A stretch of DNA of 64,000 bases from Candidatus Hydrogenedentota bacterium (lineage in GTDB: Bacteria > Hydrogenedentota > Hydrogenedentia > Hydrogenedentales > SLHB01): assembly GCA_963745075.1 (NCBI GenBank), contig CAVUWV010000018.1:1-64000 (forward strand), given 5' to 3'. This document shows, piece after piece, positions 19,596 to 40,506 of the stretch. A program made the translations under genes and the position numbers. Under the pieces are notes generated by a model. It was not told the DNA's origin, ran no database searches, and worked only from the letters and a program-made list of their open reading frames with translations. Position 1 is the stretch's first letter, and the number at the start of each line of letters is the position of its first letter.

Positions 19596-20747
19596 TCGAC
19601 CCGCGGCCTTCTGGACCTCATGAAGCCAGGATGAAATGCGCGGTTTCGGGCGCCCCACGACCTCAAGATTCAGACACGTTTCCAGGCGTGACATCTGCGG
19701 ATGTGACTAGCGTGACCGTCCTTGGAGTCAGCGGCTTCGGCCGACCAAGGGGTCGAGCCGGGTGGGATCGCCTCTAAATTGACACCGTCGTCCACTTCCA
19801 ATCTCGGTTCGGAGTTACGCATGGTTATTTGCTGACGGCCAGTTCAGCGTAGCAGTCAGGGGGGTATGATTAAGGTGACATCAGAATTTTCGGGGTATTT
19901 TCTTAACTGATTTCTACTTCGTATAGGTGCAGCCCATGAGTAGACTTAAAATTGGAGCGTAGGGTCGGCGCGATTCATTTGCTTTCCGGTATGATTCCAG
20001 GCAACATCTATTTTTCGTTACACGAAACGCGAATTCTGAGATGTAAATTATTTCTCTGACGTAATTGGCCCCTGTTGCCGTCACTCTCCTGCAAGGGATG
20101 TCATCTAAAGCATGCACTCTGGGCAAATTGACAAAATCGTACGCTCCTATTTCACCAATTTGTCCAAAGACTACTGAAGCGTTCGGAATCATGCTGTTTC
20201 ACAATGAACACCGACGCCCACACGGTTCAAGCGGAATACTCCCCCACTTCCCGTGTCGGACACGCGATCTCAGTCGGATTTTGCGGGCAGCACGTACGAA
20301 GATTGTGTCCAGCTCCGTGCCCCACGCGTCGATTCGCCGGTTTGCGATGACAGGGATGATTCGCTTGGCACCCTGCACGAGATCGAATCCTGAAGTATCG
20401 GGTCGGTGGGCTCGCAAACACGCAGGCAAGACAAAGGCGCCAAGCGACGTCGTGCGTCCAGGGTGTTGGCAAGACTCGCGGCCGGACACCTTCCTACTTT
20501 GCAGGGAGGATTTGGTCGAGACCGCGGTACTCTCGACCCGCAAGTTCGAGCGTCCCTGCGAATGCGCTTCCGGGAAGAACTTTGCGGATCAGGCGGTGAG
20601 AATCTTTCCCACGTGCCCAGAACCCCCGGACTGCACCCAATTTGCCGATGCGCGTCCACATTAGGCAAGATTCCGGCCTAATTGGCTTGTGCGGGTGGGG
20701 AATTCGGACTAGAATGGACTATCACAGCCACCTCCCGAGGATTGTGC

Positions 20748-20776
20748 TTGACACGGGGCGAATCAGGGTGTAGGAT
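20748..20776 (+). promoter_or_regulatory. Sigma70 promoter of recA
   Basis: TTGACA-N17-TAGGAT; GGAGGAG RBS downstream. Confidence 0.8.
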
Positions 20777-20784
20777 ACGGCGTG

Positions 20785-20803
20785 GTGAATAAATTTTCAG
20801 TAT
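20785..20803 (+). promoter_or_regulatory. Candidate repressor (LexA-like) operator of recA
   Basis: GTGAA-TAAATT-TTCAG-TAT palindrome between -10 and RBS; 15/18 identical to the site upstream of the dinB-family gene. Confidence 0.6.
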
Positions 20804-20821
20804 ATTTAGAGGAGGAGTTCC

Positions 20822-21883
20822 ATGGCTGACACAAAGACCGATCCGAAGGGGAAAGCCCTGGATATTGCCGTTGCACAACTCGAGAAGCAGTTTGGCCGGG
20901 GCACGTTGGTGCGTCTCGGTGATGACCAGTTCGACCGCCGGGCCCGGGCTATCTCGTCCGGGAGCCTGTCGTTGGATATTGCAACCGGGGTCGGGGGGTT
21001 CCCGCGCGGCCGAGTGGTCGAGGTGTTTGGACCGGAATCTTCGGGTAAGACGACGCTCGCCCTGCACGTGGTGGCAAACGCGCAAAAGGCCGGTGGCATT
21101 GCGTGCTTCATCGATGCGGAGCACGCGCTGGACCCCACCTTTGCGACGAAGATCGGGGTGGACATCGATAACCTCTTGGTGTCGCAGCCGGATACGGCGG
21201 AACAGGCCTTGGAGATCTGCGAGACCCTGGTGCGAAGCAACGCCGTAGACGTGATCGTCATCGACTCCGTGGCGGCGATGGTACCCAGAGCGGAAGTCGA
21301 AGGCGAGATGGGCGACAGCCATATGGGCCTTCAGGCTCGTTTGATGTCGCAGGCATTGCGTAAATTGACCGCCTCGATCAGTCGCTCGAAGACCCTCGTC
21401 ATTTTCATCAACCAGATCCGCGAAAAGATTGGCGTCATGTTTGGAAGTCCTGAAACGACGACGGGCGGGCGGGCGCTTAAGTTCTATTCCAGTATGCGGA
21501 TTGATGTTCGCCGTATCGCAACGATCAAAGAGCGGGACCAGGATGTCGGGAATCGCGTACGCGGCAAGGTTGTCAAGAACAAGATGGGTCCCCCCTTCCG
21601 TCAGGCGGAATTTGATATCTTGTTCAACGAAGGGATTTCGAAAGAAGGCGATTTGCTCGATCTCGCCGTCGAGAGTAAACTCATCCAGAAGAGCGGAGCC
21701 TGGTTTTCGATGAACGGCGAGAATTTGGGCCAGGGCCGCGAGAACACTCGCCAGTTCCTTCGGGACAACCCGGAACTTGTCGAAAAGCTCCGGGCGCAAA
21801 TCATTAAGGAGAAGGGTCTCAATTGGGCTGAATCGGAGGAGCCGGAGGAAGGCGAACCAGCCGAGACCAGCGCCAAGAGTTGA
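20822..21883 (+). CDS. recA: Recombinase RecA
   Basis: [42 protein letters not shown]. Confidence 0.99.
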
Positions 21884-39711: not shown

Positions 39712-40210
39712 CTATCCCTGCTCGTCGGCGGAGGGGCCGTAGAGCGCGGGGACGGGGATATCCAGCATGCGGAGGTAGACGCCGAGTTGGGCGCGGTGGT
39801 GGATGGAGTGGTTGAACATCATGCTCCGTAGCACGGCCACGCGGGGCATTTCGAAGAGGGGCTGGCCGTCCATGGTCATCTTCCACGGCTTGAGCATGTC
39901 GGCGTCGGAGGTGCCGGTCATGGCGTCAATGGCGTCCTTGACCTTGGCGTCGTAGTCTTCGAGCATCTGCTTTACGGACGCGGCTTTGTACGGGACGTAG
40001 TCCTTCCTGTCGAAGTTGAACTCGTCCTGCTTCATGGTGGGTTCGAACCCAATGGGGGATGTCGGACAGATGAGCGGCCAACTCCCCTAAGGTCATAGAC
40101 TTATCGTGGGGTTTCCAAGCGAACTTGTCTTCAGGAACCCGCGCGAGGACTTTGCGGGTTTGCGCCGCCTCGTGGTTGTACTCGTTCAACATACCGTCAA
40201 TGATCGCCAT
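39712..40210 (-). CDS. DinB family protein (one +1 frameshift near 40044)
   Basis: MAIIDGML..EAAQTRKVLARVP..WKPHDKSMTLGELAAHL / ..HSIHHRAQLGVYLRMLDIPVPALYGPSAD; AGGAG RBS. Confidence 0.88.
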
Positions 40211-40250
40211 GTGTATTTCTCCTAGGGTTGGTTGTTGGAATGCACCGGTG

Positions 40251-40302
40251 ATACTGAAATTAAATTCAGGTAAATTAAACCATGATTCGGCCCATTTGTC
40301 AA
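40251..40302 (-). promoter_or_regulatory. Sigma70 promoter plus palindromic operator of the dinB-family gene
   Basis: TTGACA(40302-40297)-N17-TTTAAT, then CTGAA-TTTAAT-TTCAG-TAT (40269-40251). Confidence 0.7.
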
Positions 40303-40506
40303 TGCTTTTATTCAGCAGGGCAATCGCAGTTGGTGCATCGTATCCGGTCGACGCTCCGAACCCCGCCAAGCTGGTGCCTGGCGCTCCCAGTGGCGCCACG
40401 ACAGTGCATTCCCGCCGGTTAATCGAAGTCGGCCCCGCCACACACCGGTACTTTTGTGAGAGGGTTCAATGCGTCTGTATAGGATAGAGACGACGTACAG
40501 ACCGTC

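Follow-up and report, generated by a model that had tools for sequence, protein, structure and literature searches.

In this study, we describe a 16-bp palindrome, CTGAAH-N4-DTTCAG, which very probably acts as the operator at which LexA represses lexA, recA and several genes of DNA repair across Candidatus Hydrogenedentota, as judged from its sequence, placement and conservation. The centre of the palindrome is AT-rich and the copy in front of recA usually starts with G. LexA motifs are known to vary by lineage, with 17 listed by 2021 (PMC8565304), and our literature search returned no SOS or LexA description for Hydrogenedentota and no description of this motif, with the proviso that supplements, subscription papers, RegPrecise and CollecTF might contain it. 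The box is a variant of known LexA regulation and not a new kind of regulation; what it adds is a well-supported motif and a first regulon for the phylum Hydrogenedentota.

Two copies of the palindrome lie in the window, by which we mean the whole 64,000-nt stretch of DNA that was analysed, one before recA and one before a DinB-family gene. The relevant features are:

20748..20776, plus strand: promoter-like site of recA, sigma-70-type, TTGACA-N17-TAGGAT (TTGACA at 20748-20753, TAGGAT at 20771-20776)
20785..20800, plus strand: candidate operator of recA, a 16-bp dyad, GTGAATAAATTTTCAG, scoring 28.2 bits with the weight matrix
20810..20815, plus strand: ribosome-binding site of recA, AGGAGG, by sequence
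20822..21883, plus strand: recA, 353 aa, with its ATG at 20822 (Pfam PF00154, E 3e-135)
40274..40302, minus strand: promoter-like site of the DinB-family gene, sigma-70-type, TTGACA-N17-TTTAAT (TTGACA at 40302-40297, TTTAAT at 40279-40274)
40254..40269, minus strand: candidate operator of the DinB-family gene, a 16-bp dyad, CTGAATTTAATTTCAG, with a perfect core and 24.6 bits
39712..40210, minus strand: DinB-family gene, frameshifted near 40046, both pieces of which match PF05163
19479-19551 and 55645-55717, both minus strand: two tRNA genes, found with Rfam

The promoter search returned TTGACA-N17-TAGGAT as the sole promoter-like site within 20600-20900, and the recA operator carries a change of the outer C to G that is also seen in most relatives. 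At the DinB-family gene a TG precedes the -10, and 33 nt separate the start of the box from that of TTGACA, a geometry equal to that of 32 of 61 lexA promoters; a single half-site, CTGAATAA, is found immediately upstream of the -35 (40315-40308, minus strand). The sequence-only reading from which this work set out had described the palindromes as 18-mers, TGAATAAATTTTCAGTAT before recA (20786-20803) and TGAATTTAATTTCAGTAT before the DinB-family gene (40268-40251, minus strand; gene ATG at 40210). Their coordinates, the TTGACA-N17 promoters and the agreement of the 18-mers at 15 of 18 positions are all correct by sequence, the underlying dyad being a 16-mer at 20785-20800 and 40269-40254. That reading had also pointed to CGAATCA as an element common to the two promoter spacers. 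CGAATCA is indeed present in both spacers of the window, but among relatives it occurs in 0 of 66 recA and 0 of 63 lexA promoters, hence in none of these 129, and the boxed DinB-family promoters lack it as well (0 of 7). We reject it as a second element; its double occurrence in the window is a coincidence. A search of the window with Rfam for a riboswitch or other RNA family returned the two tRNAs only.

The DinB-family gene of the window belongs to PF05163 and is of the Bacillus DinB/YfiT-like kind; it is not DNA polymerase IV. Its orthologue in the relative G106 is intact and encodes 164 aa. A one-base gap at 40046 distinguishes two related metagenome contigs from the assembly and, among the contigs of four of the eight listed DNA runs, one is identical to 40189-40339 and may represent the source sample. 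Frameshifts also split uvrA (C28:86500-89238), recN (C24:157120-158771), dnaE2 (C31:15516-20568) and an Hrq1/MrfA-like helicase gene on C14 (L118). With an intact orthologue, the one-base gap in the two contigs and these four further split genes, the frameshift near 40046 is likely to be an assembly (indel) error.

The genome that contains the window comprises 6.81 Mb with 59% G+C and holds seven perfect copies of CTGAA-N6-TTCAG and 96 copies with one mismatch; the background frequency of a box within one mismatch is 0.0045 per 300 nt. A weight matrix trained on 42 distinct lexA and recA sites, all from other genomes, found seven sites at 23.5-28.5 bits in the whole genome, with the next best at 18.1, and both window sites rank among these seven. 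They precede lexA, recA, the DinB-family gene, a Hel308-like helicase gene, a PA0069-family radical SAM gene, an ORF of 65 aa and a TetR gene. Beyond the window, the loci concerned include:

G000:C9:61849-62466: main lexA, with its box at G000:C9:62480
G000:C10:82881-85526 (L116:4881-7526), minus strand: Hel308-like helicase, 881 aa, followed by a GSU2086-family gene
G000:C8:559355-559552 (L114:7355-7552), minus strand: Arg/Pro-rich ORF of 65 aa, preceded by a strong box and by the promoter-like site TTGACA-N17-TAAAAT
G000:C19:102290-102971 (L115:6290-6971): TetR gene with a conserved palindrome of its own, TGTGAAT-N4-ATTCACA, each half-site of which differs by one base from that of the LexA box
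G000:C31:12150-20568 (L002, L419): second lexA (helix GFRAVQTAREH) followed by imuA-imuB-dnaE2, with no CTGAA box

Several mid-scoring matrix matches were also seen at G000:C36:298000-397812, in AT-rich DNA whose genes look Bacteroidota-like (a SusC-type N-terminus, GH9) and which is possibly foreign or mis-binned.

The protein encoded by the main lexA gene has the domains PF01726 and PF00717, scores 209 bits against a cut-off of 111 with TIGR00498, and has an intact Ala-Gly cleavage site, catalytic Ser/Lys pair and DNA-binding domain; its motifs AAG, GDSM and TVKR align with the sites at which E. coli LexA is cleaved and has its catalytic residues. A homologue search with LexA protein returned only close LexA relatives. 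In the genome collection, the 23 closest LexA loci (57-88% identity) comprise 18 whose titles name Ca. Hydrogenedentota or one of its lower ranks, four of Nitrospira type and one Bathyarchaeia, and beyond them identity falls below 50%. The box, within one mismatch, precedes lexA in all 23 of these closest named loci versus 2 of 57 more distant ones.

The sequence-only reading had suggested looking for the motif upstream of lexA and before recA in relatives, and both searches bear it out. In the window genome a box precedes the start of lexA by 14 nt. Across the phylum, the main LexA was found in 120 of 135 genomes, from which one genome per matched genus (62 genera) and one more were sampled, giving 63 genomes that overlap the 23-locus set and come from the same shared collection. 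The lexA box was found within one mismatch in 62 of these 63 relatives (62 genera), was perfect in 54 and occurred in 14 of 15 families; the remaining promoter has three mismatches. For recA, 66 relatives out of 129 genomes with a recA match were sampled, and 59 have the box within one mismatch, three with two and four with more, although related genomes in both the lexA and the recA counts are not independent samples. In several Hydrogenedentota lexA promoters (L016, L021, L022, L024, L176, L190) a second, weaker half-site or box follows about 17 nt after the first.

The distance from the -35 to the box is nearly fixed, the box starting 30-34 nt past the -35 start at lexA (55 of 61 promoters) and 36-40 nt past a TTGAC-like -35 start at recA (30 of the 33 boxed promoters of relatives). 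With such spacing the box overlies the predicted transcription start, which is the position of a repressor. The ends of the box differ between the two genes: at lexA the first base is C, with C...G ends, in 59 of 62 sites, whereas at recA it is G in 26 of 33. Given this conserved outer G at recA versus C at lexA, we infer that the recA operator may be deliberately weaker than that of lexA.

Canonical LexA binds its dyad as a dimer, blocks transcription and cleaves itself on RecA filaments after damage. In Hydrogenedentota, the dyad immediately downstream of the -10 would be occupied by a LexA dimer that blocks transcription, and DNA damage would trigger RecA-stimulated self-cleavage of LexA, leading to derepression. 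Repression is suggested by the position of the box over the predicted start and damage induction by the canonical mechanism, which is summarised in PMC7739468; gel shifts reported in PMC9705874 have M. xanthus LexA binding to Myxococcus-type boxes. That LexA is the binder is supported by the autoregulatory position of the box and by its co-variation with the recognition helix, for which the sole genome of family f14 (G001) provides a natural control: the helices of its two LexA proteins are of other types, and the box is absent from both of its lexA genes and from recA.

Could the box be no more than a chance likeness of AT-rich promoter DNA within a GC-rich genome? Promoter regions here are AT-rich and each local shuffle of the genome yields between zero and three sites at 23 bits, yet the seven genomic sites at 23 bits or more compare with a mean of 0.35 and a maximum of 3 over 20 such shuffles, and the coding-region controls gave 0 of 120 at 15 bits or more. 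Neither would chance account for conservation at a fixed distance ahead of both lexA and recA, nor for a box that is absent at uvrA (0 of 30 loci) and at 23 of 30 DinB-family homologues. The conservation at lexA and recA, the per-gene counts and the shuffles refute this reading, which we regard as scarcely credible. It is also improbable that these sites are bound by a different protein, be it the TetR-family repressor whose own palindrome resembles the box, the second LexA or an activator of WYL type. Such a reading draws on the GTGAAT-N4-ATTCAC palindrome before the TetR gene and the one G end of the recA site, on the second LexA encoded in the window genome, and on two genomes, G087 and G007, which keep the recA box and in which no lexA was found, both being drafts (of about 200 and 80 contigs). 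However, this TetR was found in 28 of 135 genomes versus 120 of 135 for the main LexA, and lexA is boxed in 14 of 15 families, so that TetR does not explain a box that is phylum-wide. Moreover, lexA sites end in C...G in 59 of 62 cases whereas TetR sites end in G...C, as do all 25 of the 30 TetR homologue loci that score at least 10 bits. As for the second LexA, its helix differs and its gene lacks the box. The site of a WYL activator is expected in place of the -35, whereas here the site lies downstream of the -10 and TTGACA is intact.

We retain LexA as the very probable binder. Of the seven top sites, that at C19:102290 was not counted as a LexA target, being the TetR gene's own palindrome with G...C ends; it is probably the operator of that gene, and cross-talk of TetR at recA is possible.

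To define the regulon beyond lexA and recA, the best-matching loci for each gene were scanned at a threshold of 15 bits, 30 loci per gene and 15 for the 65-aa protein, a sampling which favours close relatives and includes the window genome where it ranked. The Hel308-like helicase, whose gene 101 of 135 genomes gave a match to, was boxed in 28 of its 30 best loci. Its nearest solved structures and NCBIfam models are those of archaeal Hel308, with scores below the cut-offs, and it has a C-terminal winged-helix domain; our literature search found no prior description of Hel308 with SOS. The imuA gene of the imuA-imuB-dnaE2 cassette, found in 38 of 135 genomes, was boxed in 23 of 29 best loci, one locus having been dropped for missing upstream DNA, and the PA0069-family radical SAM gene, found in 45 of 135, was boxed in 15 of 30. 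Homologues of the 65-aa protein occur in 21 of 135 genomes, with a box of at least 15 bits in 10 of the 15 best loci, and a Pfam search assigned it to no family; we consider it a candidate new SOS protein. Both the Hel308-like helicase and this conserved 65-aa protein are put forward as damage-inducible candidates.

Other genes are less regularly associated with the box. The DinB-family gene, proposed at the outset as a target alongside recA, has a perfect core in the window, but only 7 of its 30 best homologous loci are boxed (five of the same genus and two others), with the family found in 66 of 135 genomes; it would thus be a peripheral and mostly genus-level target. DNA polymerase IV is boxed in the relatives G106 and G093. 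The sequence-only reading had listed further repair genes to be scanned, and this expectation held for lexA and for imuA of relatives but not for uvrA, which we exclude as a conserved target (0 of 30 loci at 15 bits; five loci have weak sites of 12-13 bits), nor for recN and ruvA of the window genome. Within 500 nt of recN, ruvA, polymerase IV, dnaE, the second DinB-family gene, the second lexA and imuA of that genome no box was present, and its Hrq1/MrfA-like helicase has a weak site of 9.6 bits only. Between the second lexA and imuA-imuB-dnaE2 lies an ORF that may encode an IS200-type transposase.

How does this box compare with those already known? The sequence-only reading held it to be a lineage-specific SOS box resembling, yet distinct from, GAAC-N4-GTTC. 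It is found phylum-wide, and its nearest described relative is the M. xanthus box and not the GAAC-N4-GTTC box of Firmicutes. With the Cheo box of Firmicutes and Actinobacteria, CGAAC-N4-GTTYC (PMC2248561, Table 5), it shares the inner GAA-N6-TTC spacing and that alone; the Hydrogenedentota box needs no inner C/G, and its outer bases are CT/AG rather than C/G. In the distant loci, Gram-positive-type helices (SSSTVH) accompany a GAAC-type box. Candidate boxes of other kinds were seen in further lexA promoters: TAGACA beside the -35, with the helix SLRGVTVHL, in Armatimonadota-titled loci (L030, L031, L033-L035, L037, L038, L047, L049, L051, L061), where it may be a separate box; GTAAAC-N4-GTTT, common to those of Ca. 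Sabulitectum (L043, L053, L064); and a long AT-rich TATAAAC/TAAG stretch in Poribacteria (L067, L069, L072, L075, L080).

The gammaproteobacterial SOS box of E. coli, CTGT-N8-ACAG (PMC2248561, Table 5), is of equal width, and the two share a CTG-N10-CAG skeleton, an AT-rich spacer and lexA and recA as core targets. In contrast, position 4 is A and not T in Hydrogenedentota (CTGAA versus CTGTA), CTGT being found in 2 of 190 half-sites; the helix is STNGVNDHL and not SPNAAEEHL; and uvrA is not conserved as a target.

[quoted passage not shown] It has in common with ours a 16-bp frame, CT..A..N4..TTCAG, and a place at both lexA and recA. However, the Myxococcus box is anchored on GTTCAG, whereas that of Hydrogenedentota is symmetric, usually has A/T as its inner base and has an AT-rich spacer, and its target set differs (the Hel308-like helicase, the imuA cassette and the radical SAM gene). 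For a wider comparison we used a Myxococcota-type set, namely the best 30 of 91 LexA matches in 121 sampled genomes of the phylum with a Myxococcota-titled locus. The helix pattern S[TP]N[GA]V is present in all 30, and 27 have a related box with at most two mismatches. The same pattern fits 62 of 63 Hydrogenedentota LexA proteins, and the exact helix STNGVNDHL is found in 37 of 63 versus 12 of 30, M. xanthus LexA itself lying outside both sets.

On these grounds one might take the box for nothing other than the published LexA box of Myxococcus type, its specificity not truly different. The common 16-bp CT..CAG frame and the shared STNGVNDHL helix speak for this, as does a quick LG+G4 tree of 48 rows in which the Hydrogenedentota, Myxococcota-type and Fibrobacter LexA proteins are joined (SH-aLRT 88), with a p-AU of 0.75 for the joint clade that is neither rejection nor proof. 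Nevertheless, in that tree the Hydrogenedentota proteins form a branch of their own (99), with a shorter wing region, and of 95 Hydrogenedentota sites only 2 agree with the M. xanthus consensus (12 within one mismatch). The GTTCAG half occurs in 27 of these 95 sites, whereas the corresponding G is found in 27 of 30 in the Myxococcota-type set. Both halves of TGAA-N6-TTCA are intact in 57 of 63 Hydrogenedentota versus 8 of 30 Myxococcota-type cases; half-site position 6 is C in 21 of 126 versus 39 of 54 lexA halves; and the A+T fraction of the spacer is 0.74 versus 0.41. Given these differences in symmetry, inner base and spacer, we think it unlikely, if still worth serious attention, that the two boxes are one and the same. 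Fibrobacter LexA begins its helix with STNGV, yet has no such box, so the helix alone does not set the box. The Hydrogenedentota protein, with a helix as in Myxococcota-type LexA on a box that differs in these features, thus offers a natural test of other determinants of specificity.

The evolution of LexA boxes has been explained by a stepwise model. We offer, as a tentative and rather doubtful proposal, that the box of Hydrogenedentota represents a surviving intermediate between those of Myxococcus (CTGAAC) and E. coli (CTGTAT), one base per half-site from each and read by a helix of Myxococcota type, in a regulon where, lexA and recA apart, the box is kept most faithfully at a repair gene for the archaeal-type Hel308-like helicase, joined by the 65-aa protein, and in which a phylum-wide G tunes the recA operator. 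If true, the stepwise evolution of LexA specificity could be tested with three natural proteins.

The LexA regulons of Balneolaeota and Bacteroidetes were also defined by comparative genomics, with motifs confirmed in gel shifts, as described in PMC7739468 and PMC8565304. As in those groups, the predicted regulon of Hydrogenedentota is small and comprises lexA and recA together with translesion polymerases, one helicase and a radical SAM protein; unlike theirs, its box is predicted from sequence, the motifs differ and its helicase is nearest to archaeal Hel308. The Hydrogenedentota box would thus work as a LexA SOS box, and by its sequence falls outside the Myxococcus, E. coli and Cheo boxes; we describe it as a variant of the M. 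xanthus box that is symmetric and AT-rich, on the CTG-N10-CAG skeleton of E. coli.
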